The notes below the pieces were generated by a model. That model saw nothing but the letters and a program-made list of their open reading frames with translations. It had not been told where the DNA came from and ran no database searches. The position numbers and the translations under genes are program-made. 64,000 nucleotides of DNA from Escherichia coli (GTDB lineage: Bacteria; Pseudomonadota; Gammaproteobacteria; Enterobacterales; Enterobacteriaceae). Within the stretch, counting starts at the first letter, position 1. Each line of letters begins with the position of its first letter. The stretch is taken from NCBI RefSeq assembly GCF_030384885.1, contig NZ_CP128613.1; one strand, given 5' to 3'. This document shows positions 27,290 to 35,839 of this stretch, piece by piece.

Positions 27290-28063
27290 ATGAATTCATT
27301 CGAGCGAAGGAATAAGATCATCCAATTAGTGAATGAACAGGGAACCGTGCTTGTTCAGGATCTGGCGGGAGTATTTGCTGCCTCGGAAGCGACAATCCGT
27401 GCCGATTTGCGCTTTCTCGAACAAAAAGGCGTGGTTACGCGCTTTCATGGCGGTGCGGCGAAAATAATGTCCGGTAATAGTGAAACCGAGACCCAGGAAG
27501 TCGGGTTTAAAGAGCGATTTCAGCTCGCCAGCGCACCGAAAAACAGAATAGCGCAGGCGGCAGTCAAAATGATCCACGAAGGGATGACCGTTATTCTCGA
27601 CAGCGGAAGTACGACAATGCTTATCGCCGAAGGTTTAATGACCGCCAAAAATATCACGGTGATTACCAACAGTCTCCCGGCGGCGTTTGCCCTTTCCGAA
27701 AATAAAGACATTACTCTGGTCGTCTGTGGTGGCACGGTCCGCCATAAAACGCGCTCGATGCATGGCTCCATTGCCGAGCGTTCATTGCAGGATATTAATG
27801 CCGATTTAATGTTTGTCGGTGCTGATGGTATTGATGCGGTTAATGGTATTACGACCTTTAATGAAGGTTATTCGATTAGCGGTGCGATGGTCACAGCCGC
27901 TAATAAAGTGATTGCCGTTCTCGATTCATCGAAATTTAACCGTCGCGGTTTTAATCAGGTACTACCAATCGAAAAAATTGACATTATTATTACCGATGAT
28001 GCCGTGTCAGAGGTGGATAAACTGGCATTGCAGAAGACACGGGTGAAATTAATTACGGTGTAG
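27290..28063 (+). CDS. gatR: DeoR-family repressor of the gat operon; intact in this window
   Basis: Track ORF 27284..28063; start at MNSFERRNKIIQLVNEQG. One uninterrupted ORF with no IS sequence inside. Confidence 0.85.
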   Translation: MNSFERRNKIIQLVNEQGTVLVQDLAGVFAASEATIRADLRFLEQKGVVTRFHGGAAKIMSGNSETETQEVGFKERFQLASAPKNRIAQAAVKMIHEGMTVILDSGSTTMLIAEGLMTAKNITVITNSLPAAFALSENKDITLVVCGGTVRHKTRSMHGSIAERSLQDINADLMFVGADGIDAVNGITTFNEGYSISGAMVTAANKVIAVLDSSKFNRRGFNQVLPIEKIDIIITDDAVSEVDKLALQKTRVKLITV

Positions 28064-28144
28064 CATTGTTCTTTATGCCGGATAAGGTGTGTACACCGAA
28101 TCCGGCATCACTGATACTCCCTGAATTAAGAAAGAGAAATTTGA

Positions 28145-29044
28145 TTAACGCAATAATGGACAATCCGGTGGTAATCGACAGCGCAATGCTGCCGGAAGTA
28201 TTTCAATATGAAAGTTTTGTCCACTCAACGGTTCGCCATCAAGATTAAAGGTAATTTCGTGTGGCGCTTGTATATCGAACCACGCCGAAGCACCTTCGAT
28301 AATATTCGGGTTATCTTCGTCAGATTTTAAGGTTGATACGAGAGCCGGAAGAATTTCATCGCCGGTGAAAATGCGCAGTTGCAGTAAGCCGTCGTTAATT
28401 AATGCGTTCGGGCACAATTGCTGACCGCCACCTGCCTGACGGCCGTTACCAATACCAATGACTAGTGCGTCACCTTGCCAGTGAAAGTTTTCACCGCGGA
28501 TTTCACAACGGTCCGGTTGCAGTGTATCCATGCGCATTAAGCCGTGAATGATGTAAGAGACGCCACCCAGCGCTGCTTTTAATTTTTCCGGCGTTTCTGT
28601 GGTAATACGTGTCCCAAACCCACCCGTTGCCATATTAATAAAACAGGTTTGTTTGTTGACCTGCGCCATATCAATCGCAATAGCGTCACCAGCAATTGCT
28701 TGTTTCAGCGCCTTATCCAGTGCCTCAGGAATCCCTACACTGGTGGCAAAATCATTGGCGGTTCCTAATGGCAAAATTCCCAGCGCGGGTATGTCATCCC
28801 CCTCACACTGAATCAACGCCGTAGAAACTTCATTAATGGTGCCATCGCCACCACCGGCAATCACCGTTGCGACGCCCAACTTCCGGGCCTCTTCTACAAA
28901 TCGGGCGGCATCGCCTTTCTCCCAGGTGACCCGCACATGGATCGTCATTCCTTCCTCGCGCAACAGCATAATTGCTTCGCGCAAGGGTTGATTGTCAGTA
29001 CTTTTGCCGTTAAGAATCAGTAAGCTGGCGGGAAATTCTGCCAT
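28145..29044 (-). CDS. yegS: lipid kinase YegS (DAGK_cat family)
   Basis: 299 aa; GGDGT motif ([13 protein letters not shown]). Confidence 0.88.
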
Positions 29045-29457
29045 AATCGTATGCCTTTATGATTGGTCTGTAGATAGTGTAGAGCAGAAAAGAAAAGGTG
29101 GAGTCAGAACAGGATGAAAATCGGAGGATAAAAAGTCAGTTCAAGTATGGGGGATTCAGTGGTTACCACCAGGAGCTTGCAATGGGGACAGTGAATGTTA
29201 ACGGTAGCCACCGATAAATTTCAAAAAAGAACATATACCTAATATTCAACTAAACAGTGGCATCTTCAATATCTTATTCTAAATATATTAAAGCCCTCAT
29301 GGGGGTACCTGGGAAGGGCCTTCATGTTTGTAATTCCTACTTATGTAGGAAATGTTGTACAGAACATTTATTATAATCCTATTCAATTATAATAATCATG
29401 CCATTATTATATTTAAACACCATAGCGTGTCGTTGGTATTTAATGGGGGAAGGTGAG

Positions 29458-29775
29458 ATGAAAAAGACAGCTGCTATATCATTAATTAGTGTTTTTCTTA
29501 TGTCTGGTTGTGCTGTGCATAATGATGAGACAAGTATCGGTAAATTCGGTCTTGCCTATAAAAGTAATATCCAGCGTAAACTCGATAACCAATACTACAC
29601 TGAAGCCGAAGCATCTTTAGCCAGGGGAAGAATATCTGGTGCGGAAAATATAGTGAAAAATGATGCAGCTAATTTCTGTGTTACTCAGGGCAAAAAAATG
29701 CAGATAGTTAACCTGAAGACTGAAGGGGCAGGATTACATGGCGTCGCGCGTCTGACATTCAAATGTGGAGAGTGA
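29458..29775 (+). CDS. yegR: small lipoprotein-like protein YegR
   Basis: Track ORF 29398..29775; start at MKKTAAISLISVFLMSGCAV (lipobox-like). Confidence 0.7.
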   Translation: MKKTAAISLISVFLMSGCAVHNDETSIGKFGLAYKSNIQRKLDNQYYTEAEASLARGRISGAENIVKNDAANFCVTQGKKMQIVNLKTEGAGLHGVARLTFKCGE

Positions 29776-29945
29776 GAATATTTTTTTGTAAGCGTCAAAC
29801 ATGCGCGTTCTGGTTGTGCGTAGCCGGAGCCTGTACGAGCACGATGCCGTTAAGTGAAAGGCATCGTGCTATGAAGGGGGATTCTATCGATGTGGTCAAT
29901 GGAAGACGGTCACCTGGGATCAATCCGTCTCTATGGTTTATGCAT

Positions 29946-30032
29946 AAAAAATAAGCCCGTGTAAGGGAGATTACACAGGCTAAGGAGGTGGTTCCTGGTA
30001 CAGCTAGCATTTTATGGGTTATGTTTTTCAGC
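29946..30032 (-). ncRNA. cyaR: CyaR (RyeE) Hfq-dependent sRNA
   Basis: Reverse complement reads GCTGAAAAACATAACCCATAAAATGCTAGCTGTACCAGGAACCACCTCCTTAGCCTGTGTAATCTCCCTTACACGGGCTTATTTTTT, which matches the 87-nt CyaR sequence as I recall it, including the terminator hairpin and U-tail. Confidence 0.9.
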
Positions 30033-30116
30033 GAAACGGATGATAACCTTAATAAATGCAGCTGTATGTGATCGGTTTCTAAGAATTTTCCATCCGGGAA
30101 AAATAATCGAAATTAA

Positions 30117-31478
30117 TCACTTACCGTGGGGGTTACGCGTGGTTTCCCCGGAGAAATTACGCATCAGCAGCGCGTAATTTAGCTCAAGATCCTGCGGGAC
30201 CGGGATCCACACAGTATAACCATCGCCCGGTGCGACCGGCATTGCTTCGCCTTTGGCGTTTTCCATATGCTCAAGGGTAAAGTTAATGTTCCCTTGCGGC
30301 GTCATCAGCTCAAGGCTGTCGCCAACGGAGAATTTATTTTTCACCGCTACCGCCGCGAGGTCGCCCTTGCGCTCACCGGTAAACTCACCAACAAACTGCT
30401 GGCGGTCAGAAACTGAATAACCGTATTCGTAGTTCTGATAATCGTCGTGAGTATGACGACGCAGGAAACCTTCGGTATAGCCACGATGCGCCAGACCTTC
30501 CAGAGTTTCCAGCAGGCTGGTATCGAATGGTTTTCCCGCAGCTGCGTCATCGATAGCTTTACGGTAAACCTGCGCGGTGCGTGCGCAATAGTAGAAAGAT
30601 TTTGTACGACCTTCGATTTTCAGCGAATGCACGCCCATTTTGGTCAGGCGTTCTACGTGGGCAATGGCGCGCAAATCTTTTGAGTTCATGATGTAAGTGC
30701 CGTGCTCATCTTCAAACGCGGTCATATACTCGCCCGGACGCTGGGCTTCTTCGATCATAAACACTTTGTCGGTTGGCGCGCCGATACCCAGCGTCGGCTC
30801 AACATTTTGCACCGGAATTGGCTCGTACTTGTGTACGATGTTGCCAACGTCATCTTCTTTACCTTCCTGGACGTTGTACTCCCAGCGGCAGGCGTTGGTG
30901 CAGGTGCCCTGGTTCGGATCGCGCTTGTTGATATAACCAGAGAGCAGGCAGCGACCAGAGTAGGCCATGCACAGCGCGCCGTGAACGAAGATTTCGAGTT
31001 CCATATCCGGCACCTGATTGCGGATCTCTTCAATCTCTTCCAGCGACAGTTCGCGAGAGAGGATCACGCGGGTCAGGCCCATTTGCTGCCAGAATTTCAC
31101 CGTCGCCCAGTTCACTGCGTTAGCCTGTACCGAGAGATGGATCGGCATTTCAGGGAAGTGCTCACGCACCAGCATAATCAGCCCTGGATCGGACATAATC
31201 AGCGCATCCGGCCCCATTTCCACCACCGGTTTCAGGTCACGGATAAAGGTTTTCAACTTAGCGTTGTGCGGTGCAATGTTGACCACGACATAAAACTTTT
31301 TCCCCAGCGCGTGGGCTTCATTAATGCCGAGCTGAAGATTTTCGTGGTTGAATTCGTTGTTGCGCACACGCAGGGAGTAACGCGGCTGGCCCGCATAAAC
31401 AGCATCTGCGCCATAAGCGAAAGCGTAACGCATATTTTTCAGCGTTCCCGCCGGGGAAAGGAGTTCCGGTTTAAACAT
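30117..31478 (-). CDS. yegQ: peptidase U32-family protein
   Basis: 453 aa; conserved position next to cyaR. Confidence 0.88.
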   Translation of the reverse strand: MFKPELLSPAGTLKNMRYAFAYGADAVYAGQPRYSLRVRNNEFNHENLQLGINEAHALGKKFYVVVNIAPHNAKLKTFIRDLKPVVEMGPDALIMSDPGLIMLVREHFPEMPIHLSVQANAVNWATVKFWQQMGLTRVILSRELSLEEIEEIRNQVPDMELEIFVHGALCMAYSGRCLLSGYINKRDPNQGTCTNACRWEYNVQEGKEDDVGNIVHKYEPIPVQNVEPTLGIGAPTDKVFMIEEAQRPGEYMTAFEDEHGTYIMNSKDLRAIAHVERLTKMGVHSLKIEGRTKSFYYCARTAQVYRKAIDDAAAGKPFDTSLLETLEGLAHRGYTEGFLRRHTHDDYQNYEYGYSVSDRQQFVGEFTGERKGDLAAVAVKNKFSVGDSLELMTPQGNINFTLEHMENAKGEAMPVAPGDGYTVWIPVPQDLELNYALLMRNFSGETTRNPHGK

Positions 31479-31681
31479 AATTCTCTCGTTCTGATGACAG
31501 GTCAGATCCGCTTCACCTGATGAAGCGGTTGGGGGAGTGCCCCCACTTTAAGGGCGGGCATTGTAGCGCAATCGGTGGGGTTGACTCCAGTGACAATGTT
31601 AAGGGAAAGACTGCGCATTTATTTCGTTTTGACTCCGATAGTCGTCAGGTTCAATTGTTATCAGTTGACCTTAATTTGGTG

Positions 31682-33082
31682 TTAAAGAAAGGGAATATAA
31701 CCCCATAACTTGTTGTGAAGTTCCGGATTGCAGGTAAAAAGCGCCTGAAGTTGCTGACGCTGAGGAGCATTTGGTTGAATGCCCGAAAGATTGAAATTGC
31801 GTTGCCATATCGCGAGCTGTTTACCTGCAAATTCTTCAGTTAGCTTGTGTTGCGATTGCAGAAGAAGAATTAAACAGGCCCATTTGTTCAAGTTATGATA
31901 CAGCCGACAATATGCGCAAGCATGTTTAACTGACGGTGCGTTTTCCAGCAACTTACGTATTTCCTCGAACGTAAGCGGAACTCGACACCATACACAGATG
32001 TTAACCATAAATCGAAGCCCGGAGGCGTCCGGGTTAGCCAGTGTGGTCAGAATAATCCCTTTGACACCACCATCAGGATTGGCTTTCGCAAGAATATACA
32101 TAGCGGCTAATCGCATTGGGAATACATCCTGTGATAATCCCCATTCTGCCAGTTTTAAAATATTGGCATCATGAATGGAGTCCAGCCCGTATAAAGCTGC
32201 CCGGCGCTGTGAGGGAGTATATTCAGTCGAGGTGACAACATGACGCCAGAATTGCACAACATCCATGACGTCATTAAGCATGTTTTTAGCGCGTAGACGG
32301 ATCAACATATTGTTATCCAGCAGTAATGCGCTGTACAACGCCGGAGGAATTTCTATAGCTCGGTCAGTAAGGCTAAACAACGTTGCTTGTCGAATACGCG
32401 GCCAGCGGTCTTTTAACAGACGAGTTAATACCGCTTCGCTTAACGGTAATTGTTGACGCAGCCAGTGGGTGACCGCCAGCATTCGTAAACCTTCGTCGGG
32501 CTGCTTGAGTATTAAAAGCAGCGAAGATTCATCATTAAAGTAGCCATATTCAATCAGCGTTTGTAATACTGCGCGGGAGAGTTTTTTATCAGGGCAAGTA
32601 AGCCAACACGTTAATTGTGGACGGCTATTTTCTGTCAATAAAAATCTAAGTATCTCGTCTACAAATGCACGGTGATCGTAACGCTGGCATTGGAGAAGGT
32701 TACGTATCAAGGGAAGATTAACGGCAAATGCCGCTGCATTCTTATCCTTCTTTAAATGACGTAACGCTATGGTTGCAGCAAGGCGAACCTCTTTTACCCA
32801 GTCATTAGCTGCAAGTAATAATTCTTCTATAGCTGCAACATCCTCTTTTTGTCCCAGACATTGCACGGCCTTTTCTCGTATATATCCATTGTGGTGATGG
32901 GTAAGCTGGCAAAGAACCAGAGTATCGTTGAGATCACAATCATGCGCTATATAATTGCCTGGATCGGCTATCATCGACTGGAGTTGTTGCTGGATAAGAA
33001 ATAATTCACAGTCAACAGAATTATTCATTTCGACGTTAAACAAAACCCTGCGTGTAAATAATGTACGCAATCCTTTGAGCAT
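31682..33082 (-). CDS. hypothetical alpha-helical repeat (HEAT/ARM-like) protein, 466 aa; not a gene I recognise at this locus
   Basis: Complete ORF in a visibly AT-richer stretch than its neighbours; recurring hydrophobic/Ala-rich helical repeats (WVKEVRLAATIALRHL, LRMLAVTHWLRQ, PMRLAAMYILAKA); no signal peptide or TM segment evident. Confidence 0.6.
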   Translation of the reverse strand: MLKGLRTLFTRRVLFNVEMNNSVDCELFLIQQQLQSMIADPGNYIAHDCDLNDTLVLCQLTHHHNGYIREKAVQCLGQKEDVAAIEELLLAANDWVKEVRLAATIALRHLKKDKNAAAFAVNLPLIRNLLQCQRYDHRAFVDEILRFLLTENSRPQLTCWLTCPDKKLSRAVLQTLIEYGYFNDESSLLLILKQPDEGLRMLAVTHWLRQQLPLSEAVLTRLLKDRWPRIRQATLFSLTDRAIEIPPALYSALLLDNNMLIRLRAKNMLNDVMDVVQFWRHVVTSTEYTPSQRRAALYGLDSIHDANILKLAEWGLSQDVFPMRLAAMYILAKANPDGGVKGIILTTLANPDASGLRFMVNICVWCRVPLTFEEIRKLLENAPSVKHACAYCRLYHNLNKWACLILLLQSQHKLTEEFAGKQLAIWQRNFNLSGIQPNAPQRQQLQALFTCNPELHNKLWGYIPFL

Positions 33083-33204
33083 AATTTTCCTTATCAGTTA
33101 TGAGGAGAAAACTCATTTCATGATTAATAATTTCCTGAGGGATAGTAACTCTGTGATGAGAGAAAATAAAGCCGGACGCCAACAACCTACGCCCGGCATC
33201 GTAA

Positions 33205-33537
33205 TTACGTATTGTCTTTCACCGTCTGGCTTGTGCCATTGGCTTTAACGGAGGCAATTCCGGTTTCACGAGATTGCGCGGTGGCGTACATCTGGCTGGA
33301 GCCGATAATTTGATGATTGGCGGCTTTCAGATTGAAATAGAATTTGCCGTTGCTTGCTGTTTTTTTCTCATAGCGTTCTTCTTGTGGGCTGTTGCTACGC
33401 ACTGACGCGATGCCCTTTTCCGCAGAGGCTTTTGAGGTATACAGCTCGCTGGTGAGGATAGTCTCACCATTGCCCGCTTTTAGCACAAACCGGAATTGAT
33501 TATCACTGCTCCTACTGAGTTCAAACCAACCAGCCAT
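33205..33537 (-). CDS. yegP: YegP (UPF0339/DUF1508 tandem-repeat protein)
   Basis: Track ORF 33205..33576; start moved to MAGWFELSRSSDNQFRF (110 aa); internal duplication visible (FRFVLKAGNGE / FYFNLKAANHQ). Confidence 0.85.
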   Translation of the reverse strand: MAGWFELSRSSDNQFRFVLKAGNGETILTSELYTSKASAEKGIASVRSNSPQEERYEKKTASNGKFYFNLKAANHQIIGSSQMYATAQSRETGIASVKANGTSQTVKDNT

Positions 33538-33716
33538 AATGACTCCTTGATTGAAATTGCGTATCGAAAACAGCATCTAAAAGGACTGTTTGCCGATTAA
33601 AGTATGAGCGATTTTCAGGTGCTTGCCAGGGCGGAGAGATAATGTCAGATAGCCGACAATGCGCGGGATAATGCTGCCGGATGTGGCGTGAATGCCTTCT
33701 CCGGCAGGTAAAAATG

Positions 33717-34439
33717 TTAAACGATGCGGCAGGCGTCGGCTTCCCAGCGATAACCGACACCGTAGACGGCGCGGATAAAAGACTGCTCTTCGTCCAGAGC
33801 TTCCAGCTTGCGACGCAGGTTTTTAATGTGGCTGTCGATGGTGCGGTCAGTTACTACGCGGTAGTCGTCATAAAGATGATTGAGCAATTGCTCGCGGGAG
33901 AACACTTTTCCTGGTTCATGAGAGAGTGTTTTCAGCAGACGAAATTCCGCAGGCGTCAGGTCAAGCATTTTACCGCGCCATGAAGCCTGAAAACGACCTT
34001 CGTCGATAATCAACGGGCTTTCAGCATCCTGTTGCTGCAACTCACGCTGCGGTTTGCAACGGCGCAAAATGGTTTTGACGCGTGCTACCACTTCCCGTGG
34101 GCTGTACGGCTTGCAGATATAATCATCTGCGCCAATCTCCAGCCCGAGCAGGCGGTCGATCTCTTCGATTTTTGCTGTCACCATCACGATCGGAATGTCA
34201 GAAAAACGACGAATCTCCCGACACAACGTCAGGCCATCGGTGCCGGGGAGCATCAGATCCAACAGGATCAGATCCGGTGGTGTCTGGCGCACATATGGCA
34301 GTACCTGATCGCCGTGGCTGATAAGCGTCGGCGCATAGCTCGCAGCACGCAGATAATCAATAAGCAACTGCCCCAGCTTCGGTTCATCTTCCACGATCAA
34401 AATACGTGGCGTGTTTTCGTCGATTGGTAACTCGGTCAT
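33717..34439 (-). CDS. baeR: OmpR-family response regulator BaeR
   Basis: 240 aa; receiver domain plus winged-helix; overlaps baeS by 4 nt. Confidence 0.93.
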
Positions 34440-35839
34440 ACTTCTCTCTGTAAATCCCGTTCCAGCGGTAACTCTACTGTAATGCTTACCCCGCCAAAAG
34501 GCGAATGAGCGGCAACAATGCGACCATTATGTGCTTCAACAATGTTAAGACAAATCGCCAGCCCCAGGCCGGAACCGCCGCTGGCACGGTTGCGGGAACC
34601 TTCGGTGCGATAAAAACGCTCAAACAATTTTTGCAGTTGATCGTCACTAACGCCCGGTGCACTGTCGGCAAAGGTCAGGCGCACCGTTTTGTCATGTTGC
34701 TCGGCAGAGATATGCAGGCTGCCGCCGCTGTCGGTATAGCGCAGGCTGTTTTCCAGTAAGTTATTGAACAACTGCATTAAACGATCGCGATCGCCAAATA
34801 CGGTAATGCTGTCTGGCAGGGAAAATTTCAGTTTCAGCCCGCGGCTGGCGAAACGCTCACGAAATGCGCCACCCGCGACTTCCAGTAGCGGGATCAGATC
34901 CACCGACGATTTCTGGTAGGCGAGAGCGCCTTCATCAGACATCGACAATTGATGAAGATCATCCACCAGTTTGGTCAGTGTACCGACCTCTGCCTGTAAA
35001 GAAGCCACCGTCTCCGGCGTGAATTTACGCACGCCATCCTGAATAGCTTCCAGTTCGCCGCGCAGTACCGCTAAAGGCGTGCGCAGCTCGTGGGAGATAT
35101 CGGCCATAAAATCGCGGCGCATCTGTTGGTTTTTCTCCAGCGTGCTGGCGAGCTGGTTGAAGTCTTGCGCCAGTTTGCCCAATTCATCTTCACTGGTGGG
35201 CGTCACGCGAGTAGTGAAATCGCCCGCTGCCAGTTTGTGTGTACCGTCCACCAGTCGTTTGACCGGAGCCAGCAAACCGCGCGCCAGTGGGAATGTCGCC
35301 AGCGCCGCTAACAAGGTAGATAAAGCGACAATCAGCCAACTGGTTTGCCTCTGTTGTCTGTCAAAATTGATGTCGGTATTGCGGGTCAGTCGTTCAACAG
35401 GGGAGGCGATCACCGCACCCACTTCCGCCCCATTGACCATAATGGGCCGCCGTGTGCCGTCTGGTGGAATCGGTGCTCGCGGGCCAACCAGCACTTTGTT
35501 GTTTTGATCAACCACCCAGAATTGCGTGCGCCAACCGTGTGGCGGCATACCGGGGCCGGGCTTATCTTCGTTGTTATCATGCTCCAGCGAACGTAGGATC
35601 TGAAATACAAAGCGATCGTTATTACGCAGGAAGCGCCAGTTCCCGTGCTGGGCGTACTGCTCACCAAGCGCATCGCCGAGCATTTGCAGCCGTTGTTCAT
35701 TTCCATGCTTGATGTAATCGATAAAGCCGCGCTCAAAACTGATACGTACCGCCCAGTGCATCGTGATCAATAAGACAATGCAGGTGGCGAAAATCGCCAG
35801 AAACAGTTTGCCGGTAATACCGGGTCGCCAGAATTTCAT
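34436..35839 (-). CDS. baeS: sensor histidine kinase BaeS
   Basis: 467 aa; H-box HELRTP and HATPase motifs. Confidence 0.93.

Follow-up and report, generated by a model that had tools for sequence, protein, structure and literature searches.

What does an AT-rich gene of generic name do between two core genes that are direct neighbours in Escherichia coli K-12? In the 64,000-nucleotide stretch of E. coli DNA analysed here (contig NZ_CP128613.1 of assembly GCF_030384885.1; hereafter the window), an open reading frame (ORF) for a 466-residue protein lies between yegQ and yegP, two genes that are adjacent and 146 bp apart in K-12, as the first-pass annotation, made from the sequence alone, had stated. 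RefSeq names the product, WP_000911984.1, only as a "HEAT repeat domain-containing protein". That annotation guessed at an anti-defence factor, an immunity protein or an effector-binding scaffold; no specific support emerged for any of these and there are no phage or viral homologues, the sole strong signal being a linkage of homologues to Rtc and tRNA-array loci. Genes of the clade to which the E. coli protein belongs lie repeatedly inside or beside Rtc RNA-repair operons, and sometimes beside tRNA arrays. The gene is already known to RefSeq under its generic name; what may be new is an Rtc-type operon with a different HEAT-solenoid accessory gene, of which the window holds a detached copy.

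The window protein is a PBS-lyase/alphaRep-type HEAT-like repeat solenoid of a large, unnamed bacterial family. The helical repeats seen in the first-pass annotation are borne out by a Pfam HEAT_2 (PF13646) match (E 8e-5, plus sub-threshold repeat matches), which recurs at E≤1e-3 in 51 of 60 family members, and by comparison of the family profile with solved structures (alphaRep/PBS-lyase-type repeats, E 1e-39 to 1e-13; CpcE, 6e-8; YibA, 5e-6). An AlphaFold2 model built from a 60-sequence alignment is all-alpha, with ~28 helices forming ~14 repeats (predicted local distance difference test, pLDDT, 93.3; predicted template modelling score, pTM, 0.84); with a 10-sequence alignment pLDDT was 70.6 and the N-terminal 114 residues appeared disordered, which the larger alignment cured. 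Foldseek found no global match to this model in the PDB (template modelling score ≤0.29), and its matches in AFDB50 were all "HEAT repeat" proteins without further annotation, spread over Proteobacteria, Firmicutes, Planctomycetes and other groups. The protein has no confident match to a well-characterised family, in keeping with the first reading: NCBIfam and PHROGs returned nothing, and PADLOC-DB v2 gave a weak partial match at the level of repeats (HEAT-ARM_XIII, E 1.2e-7, 188 of 1972 profile positions) besides a chance-level match to BrxF, with neither a full-length match to a known defence system nor partner genes.

A word-indexed search recovered only Escherichia/Shigella relatives (at least 60% identity), and an exhaustive profile search (hidden Markov model) recovered 1714 cluster representatives below an E-value of 1e-3, of which 572 also fell below 1e-10. 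These matches are mostly full-length and collinear over query residues ~26-463. Members measure 430-560 residues and take two forms, a short one of ~445 residues and a long one of ~540 with an N-terminal extension; in a neighbour-joining tree, the E. coli protein and those of other Enterobacterales nest inside the short-form clade. In the 60-member alignment G66, R69, A72, N93, D94, W95, D256, W401 and W426 are invariant, all of them retained in the window protein, and R100, R134, H137, D196, R200, D225, R231, R262, K400, N431 and Q441 are near-invariant. The family motifs read NGYxRExAV, NDWVxxVR, RxDH, NKW and W...FN. Many of the conserved Asp and Arg residues occupy structural D-x(3-5)-R repeat positions; W95, R134/H137, K400/W401, W426, N431 and Q441 are family-specific. 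The proteins are basic (median isoelectric point, pI, 9.0; 8.7 in E. coli), and this charge, together with the invariant Trp, Arg, Lys, His and Asn residues, is compatible with nucleic-acid binding without proving it.

The genomic context of the relatives is more informative. Eight of ten Pectobacterium species loci have rtcR divergent from rtcB, after which comes the HEAT gene, either directly or with rlaP in between; rtcB and the HEAT gene are separated by 16 bp at locus L024, and the Pectobacterium rtcR scores over the NCBIfam RtcR cut-off with 840 bits. A distant member, P0027 (E 3e-33, locus L037), closes an HTH-RlaP(PF10127)-HEAT series with a 22-bp gap, amid genes for RtcB, PrfH (RF-1), an RNA ligase, an HD/AAA_33 kinase, KptA, an ADP-ribosylglycohydrolase, NADAR and NUDIX proteins, and on a Deinococcus plasmid the order is RNA ligase-HEAT. 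A metagenome set of 80 loci was picked solely by two HEAT-family peptide motifs and scored with tblastn seeds, themselves verified with NCBIfam, and with ARAGORN. It contains the following arrangements:

L050: rtcB-HEAT-rtcA
L051: rtcB-rtcA-HEAT
L101: rtcB-rlaP-rtcA-HEAT
L114: rtcB-HEAT-rlaP-rtcA, with gaps of 4 and 23 bp
L124: rtcB-HEAT
L121: HEAT-rtcA
L055 and L113: rtcA with HEAT
L053: rtcB near HEAT
L087 and L088: HEAT-rtcB
L058 (3372-4186) and L059 (2907-3727): rtcB, 9-10 tRNA genes, HEAT
L064 (544-1024): rtcB, a shorter tRNA array, HEAT
L057 and L060: tRNA array-HEAT, the contigs stopping short of any rtcB

When the E. coli protein was compared directly with the rtcB-embedded protein of L114 by BLASTP, the E-value was 5e-14 and the family motifs lined up. 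Of the 28 short-form loci in the tree that are not enterobacterial, 14 show linkage to Rtc genes or tRNA arrays; L058-L060 are near-identical, so ~12 of the 14 are independent, and many of the unlinked short-form loci are contigs of only 1-3 kb. Long-form members are almost never Rtc-linked. Since rtcB, rtcA and rlaP are roughly single-copy, we estimate that chance would place one of them within ±7 kb of fewer than ~1 in 80 random loci. Adjacency that is kept while gene order shuffles is a classic sign of functional coupling. The tRNA arrays have a counterpart in cyanobacteria, where such L-arrays are linked to and co-regulated with rtcB (PMC8421152); a hypothetical gene of Anabaena, all4315, which is likewise co-regulated with rtcB and tRNA-array-linked (PMC8421152), is a possible member of the HEAT family.

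Some smaller points attach to these loci. The contigs with rtcB, a tRNA array and the HEAT gene come from soil and rhizosphere metagenomes and carry an extra tRNA-like gene just downstream of the HEAT gene. Two apparent ORF clusters at high-GC metagenome loci (c2 and c16) proved to be antisense artefacts of crude ORF calling, and are really tRNA arrays. Genes of the Band-7/SPFH (slipin-like) type recur near rtcB-HEAT loci (L059, 6058-7554; L037, 12210-13214), and the TrcR regulon of Anabaena includes a slipin gene together with rtcB (PMC10272220).

The arrangement resembles that of Ro60/Rsr, the TROVE HEAT-repeat ring encoded in rtcR-rsr-yrlBA-rtcBA: both are alpha-helical repeat proteins whose genes are extra, co-oriented members of an Rtc operon, and rtc operons commonly recruit the RNA-binding HEAT-ring protein Ro (PMC3854526). 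As Das and Shuman describe, dinJ-yafQ comes after Salmonella rtcR-ro-rtcBA (PMC3854526), and the HEAT homologues are likewise followed by toxin-antitoxin pairs. Ro60/Rsr differs in possessing a TROVE domain and a C-terminal vWA domain, both of which the window protein fails to match, and in its adjacent Y RNA genes (YrlA/YrlB). A gathering-threshold Rfam scan of six homologue loci found tRNAs and a C4 RNA only and no Y RNA, and in window positions 28000-35000 the scan found only CyaR. RlaP (PF10127) came to notice in the same manner, through a gene that is consistently found next to those for RtcB and RNA ligases (PMC12776372), and rlaP directly adjoins the HEAT gene in Pectobacterium and at L037, L101 and L114; RlaP, however, is a Pol-beta-fold nucleotidyltransferase with shown RNA activity, whereas the HEAT protein has no enzymatic fold. 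The closest solved fold is that of E. coli YibA (PDB 1oyz; HEAT_2/HEAT_PBS, CpcE/F class), which matches ~170 of the 466 residues at 8% identity, is 280 residues long, lacks the NDW, RxDH, NKW and W...FN motifs, and has no known function. AlkC and AlkD are bacterial HEAT-like-repeat proteins of nucleic-acid repair, a role that the HEAT family would share by inference, and both groups have conserved Trp and Asp residues. Membership of the AlkC/AlkD group is not indicated: the PF08713 match has an independent E-value of 0.11 only, no match to solved AlkC/AlkD structures was found, and AlkC/AlkD, like Ro60, are absent from all structure-comparison lists.

Rtc-operon adjacency, which holds for many homologues, does not hold for the window gene, whose neighbours are yegP and yegQ; at the level of the species, the rtcR-rtcBA genes of E. 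coli lie elsewhere in the genome (PMC3854526). The locus is laid out as follows:

30117..31478, minus strand: yegQ/trhP, core flank, a tRNA U34 hydroxylase gene (ORF listing, annotation of the identical locus)
31479-31569: conserved yegQ upstream region, outside the inserted segment, with the left border within (site-state alignment)
31570..31618, no strand given: left junction sequence, its first ~30 bp common to the ParDE site state and not to K-12 (three-way alignment)
31619..31661, minus strand: relict 5' end of a ParD-like antitoxin ORF, its start codon changed from ATG to ATA (aligns with L004)
31682..33082, minus strand: coding sequence of the HEAT-repeat protein, 466 amino acids, ATG start (ORF listing, RefSeq WP_000911984.1)
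33083..33170, minus strand: AT-rich 5' leader absent from K-12, the presumed promoter region of the HEAT gene
33171..33200, minus strand: intrinsic-terminator hairpin and T-run of yegP, the right border of the variable segment, common to the empty, ParDE and HEAT states
33205..33537, minus strand: yegP, core flank, 110 amino acids (annotation of the identical locus)

Aligned with the empty K-12 site, the K-12-absent segment extends over 31570-33170, ~1.6 kb. The insertion that the first-pass annotation described is therefore real, and its extent (~1.7 kb, 31479-33204) was too generous, since the ends belong to the conserved yegQ upstream region and the yegP terminator; yegP itself is the annotated 110-residue ORF, not the 123-residue ORF of the mechanical list. 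At the left junction, BLAST alignments break at 31569 against K-12, at 31599 against the ParDE state and at 31624 against the state with HEAT gene and parD, and at the right a terminator-like site lies at 33183-33171 (minus strand). The ORF is, as had been claimed, AT-richer than its flanks: its G+C content (GC) is 0.440 and that of its third codon positions (GC3) 0.407, compared with GC/GC3 of 0.532/0.617 for yegQ, 0.531/0.589 for baeR, 0.541/0.583 for baeS and 0.470/0.524 for yegP; over the flanking genes generally, GC3 spans 0.52-0.68. The inserted segment as a whole has a GC of 0.43 against a window mean of 0.503. A 2.3-kb region around the ORF, coding sequence included, is 100% identical to E. 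coli strain 2013C-4282. No direct repeats mark the segment borders, where inverted repeats are short and at chance level, and no insertion sequence (IS) or integrase is annotated at the identical RefSeq locus, which agrees with the earlier observation. In the leader (33083..33170), no minus-strand sigma-70 consensus was found.

A survey of 5426 complete E. coli genomes, in 5423 of which the flanks were found, shows that the yegP-yegQ spacer varies and can take several states. In 39 genomes (~0.7%) the insert is at least 80% complete, and 96 hold some part of it, which makes the gene accessory at this site, as the first-pass annotation supposed; its composition is likewise atypical. A cassette of the ParD-ParE/RelE family occupies the same position in 1844 of the 5426 genomes (34%). 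Other states combine the HEAT gene with a 52-residue ParD remnant (L004, annotated at 2385-2543) or with a 201-residue hypothetical gene on the opposite strand (L007), replace the N-terminal half of the HEAT protein with a TPR protein (L008), or carry the HEAT gene truncated or interrupted by IS1 (L005); some copies are annotated as two coding sequences, which we read as frameshifts. Neither the 201-residue hypothetical nor the TPR protein had a convincing match in NCBIfam or PADLOC. Window positions 31619-33500 align with L004 2501-4382, the window being the L004 state minus 110 bp, and the ParD remnant shows homology to the complete ParD found where ParDE occupies the site. The segment does hold a single complete ORF, and with the ParD-like relic at 31619-31661 the remainder is not featureless.

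HEAT alleles ~7% apart in DNA have a nonsynonymous divergence (dN) of 0.045 and a synonymous divergence (dS) of 0.168 (dN/dS, ω, 0.27), and in the same genome pair dS is 0.138 for yegQ and 0.089 for yegP. Because its dS is near that of the flanking genes, the HEAT gene looks about as old at this locus as its carrier lineages. Across E. coli HEAT alleles dN/dS is 0.23-0.27, about ten-fold above yegQ, and intact alleles with ~7% DNA divergence persist in separate lineages. Flank-like dS, the ParD-like relic and the truncated, IS1-hit and frameshifted copies together make the segment look like an old, eroding occupant, and the gene looks moderately constrained yet in the course of being lost from E. 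coli, not recently imported. Of the solitary acquired gene first proposed, the accessory distribution and atypical composition stand; recent acquisition (dS 0.17 near 0.14 in yegQ and 0.09 in yegP) and solitude are not supported.

The toxin-antitoxin theme is not confined to E. coli, where a ParD relic adjoins the HEAT gene and ParDE also occupies the site: in three genera a type II toxin-antitoxin pair comes after the HEAT homologue, and the pair belongs to a different family in each. In Pectobacterium (L019 and L024, 9409-10792) the HEAT gene is succeeded by a RelB/RelE-type pair and the gene for an HNH protein akin to restriction endonucleases that bind phosphorothioate DNA, in a small variable patch downstream of rtcB. 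In the Enterobacteriaceae metagenome-assembled genome UBA3516 (L014, 6906-7651), TacA (DUF1778) and the aminoacyl-tRNA-acetylating GNAT protein TacT lie between the HEAT homologue and yegQ, and the pair matches solved structures at E 1e-71 (TacT) and 1e-42 (TacA). There yegP is absent and the baeR-yegQ interval holds a HEAT homologue of 41% identity between a BaeR of 92% and a YegQ of 93%, which implies that the gene here either evolves very rapidly or has been replaced again and again. The recurrence of toxin-antitoxin pairs may mean no more than that they lodge in variable spots; it is also consistent with a pattern in which toxins that target translation lie next to genes of the RNA-damage response. 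No conserved partner gene is shared across Enterobacterales, synteny being genus-specific. In Rahnella the HEAT homologue adjoins a hutW-hutX-chuY-like anaerobic haem-degradation operon, on opposite sides in L017 and L028 versus L030, L033 and L034, which with the PBS-lyase repeat type hints at a tetrapyrrole link in one genus only; a bilin-lyase role, considered on these grounds, was set aside because the adjacency is confined to that genus. On the Paraburkholderia phymatum plasmid pBPHY02 (L043, 6956-9358), the homologue has a filamentous haemagglutinin gene as its neighbour, and after it comes a 220-residue protein with a weak, below-cut-off SLATT-domain match (E 7e-5).

What, then, might the protein do? 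We consider it an even call that it is an RNA-repair accessory solenoid whose E. coli copy is an orphan, partly decaying. As proposed, a non-catalytic basic solenoid would bind RtcB and/or damaged RNA (broken tRNA being the likeliest kind) and would present substrates for sealing, filling the slot that Ro60/Rsr takes in other rtc operons; the binding of RNA or RtcB is predicted from operon linkage and basic pI. The E. coli copy would have become detached from rtcBA; it now sits in a variable spacer after the yegP terminator, beside a toxin-antitoxin relic. If it works at all, it might act in trans with the chromosomal rtcBA, or against RNA damage inflicted by translation-targeting toxins; the window contains neither an rtc gene nor a tRNA gene, the HEAT gene has no sigma-54 promoter before it, and any role in E. 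coli would be exerted in trans. More tentatively, and with somewhat less conviction than for the protein itself, we suggest that the whole family could be an unrecognised, widespread solenoid subunit of the Rtc system that captures broken tRNAs or damaged RNAs, hands them over to RtcB, RtcA or RlaP, and travels with tRNA arrays and translation-targeting toxin-antitoxin modules.

Several observations weigh against a role in RNA repair. The 64-kb window holds no rtcB, rtcA, rlaP or tRNA gene, and no sigma-54/RtcR-type site (TGGCAC-N5-TTGCW, up to two mismatches) occurs in 33083-33204. Neighbours are unrelated to Rtc genes in Serratia, Rahnella, Xenorhabdus, Affinibrenneria and nearly all long-form members. 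In E. coli the gene is so often frameshifted, truncated or IS1-disrupted that its function must be dispensable there. HEAT solenoids, moreover, mostly bind proteins. The literature search returned no paper that ties this family to rtc operons, and as it did not cover the main comparative survey an earlier description is possible.

A rival reading is a solenoid of the toxin-neutralising or immunity type, one that blocks an RNase or another translation-targeting toxin (type II, colicin or contact-dependent-inhibition-type) and shares repair operons because both counter the same attack. The differing toxin-antitoxin pairs after the homologue in three genera (ParD/ParDE, RelB/RelE, TacA/TacT), the haemagglutinin and SLATT-like neighbours in Paraburkholderia, and the 41% homologue in the same slot between flanks of 92-93%, a pattern typical of conflict genes, all speak for such a protein. 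We nevertheless regard it as unlikely: toxin-antitoxin pairs already include an antitoxin, none of the toxin genes recurs as a fixed companion, 445 residues is large for an immunity protein, and the Trp, Arg, His, Lys and Asn motifs, strict across phyla, imply one conserved ligand and not the diversifying recognition of toxins. It is improbable that the gene acts on its own in anti-phage defence or counter-defence, as an occupant of a minor hotspot for defence genes. In favour of this reading, the one spacer variously holds ParDE, HEAT, a TPR protein, a 201-residue hypothetical or IS1, PADLOC gives its weak match to a candidate-defence model, the Pectobacterium copies adjoin the HNH protein related to phosphorothioate-DNA restriction enzymes, and RNA repair itself figures in phage-host conflicts (PMC7824862). 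The match to the candidate-defence model HEAT-ARM_XIII, however, spans ~190 of 1972 profile positions and reflects repeat-level similarity only, effector domain and partner genes are lacking at the locus, and synteny is stable in Pectobacterium species, unlike that of typical defence cargo. Homologues were absent from 50,697 phage records (tblastn), IMG/VR contigs and PHROGs, and a phage origin of the gene was rejected on the first two of these searches.

The invariant polar and aromatic residues outside the repeat consensus, and the presence of the gene in repair operons, could instead be those of a HEAT-like-repeat enzyme acting on damaged nucleic acid, comparable to AlkC/AlkD or deoxyhypusine hydroxylase, with NDW, RxDH and NKW as its active site. 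The marginal DNA_alkylation match (PF08713, E 0.11, residues 83-192) that points this way is not significant and was absent from the 60-member scan, His-Glu metal motifs are missing, and most of the conserved Asp and Arg residues are structural D-x(3-5)-R positions; an enzyme is, in our judgement, very improbable. As for the E. coli copy alone, it would be merely a decaying relic without present function if the rarity of the segment (at least 80% of it in 39 of the 5426 genomes, part in 96), the broken copies, the neighbouring antitoxin gene already reduced to a relic and the ten-fold excess of dN/dS over yegQ were the whole record. The window copy is nonetheless full length with every family-invariant residue, a dN/dS of 0.23-0.27 over a dS of 0.17 still denotes constraint, and intact alleles ~7% diverged in DNA persist in different lineages, so we think a functionless relic quite improbable.

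Should the RNA-repair role be correct, E. coli carriers of the yegP-yegQ copy would possess an additional means of tolerating RNA damage, one that does not depend on RtcR. What bacterial RtcB and RtcA act on in nature, and with which partners, is still poorly defined, and it was operon context that first drew attention to each of the known accessory factors (Ro60 with Y RNAs, archease, PrfH, RlaP). A ~445-residue solenoid beside rtcB, rtcA and rlaP in unrelated lineages, and beside tRNA arrays, is a testable candidate for damaged-RNA recognition. The puzzling low-GC gene of the window is meanwhile explained as an old, eroding remnant in a variable spacer and not a fresh import.

Some further features of the surroundings were recorded. 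The lowest GC nearby (0.34-0.37) falls not in the segment but at 29100-29800, with a yegR-like ORF at 29398-29775 (GC3 0.33), and the small RNA CyaR lies at 29949-30034 (minus strand). The P2 remnant ogrK, beyond yegQ, is found in K-12 and not in the carrier strain. A 43-kb E. coli plasmid (NZ_CP083887.1, 14857-15156) carries an unannotated fragment of the HEAT gene, encoding its last ~100 residues at 81% identity.

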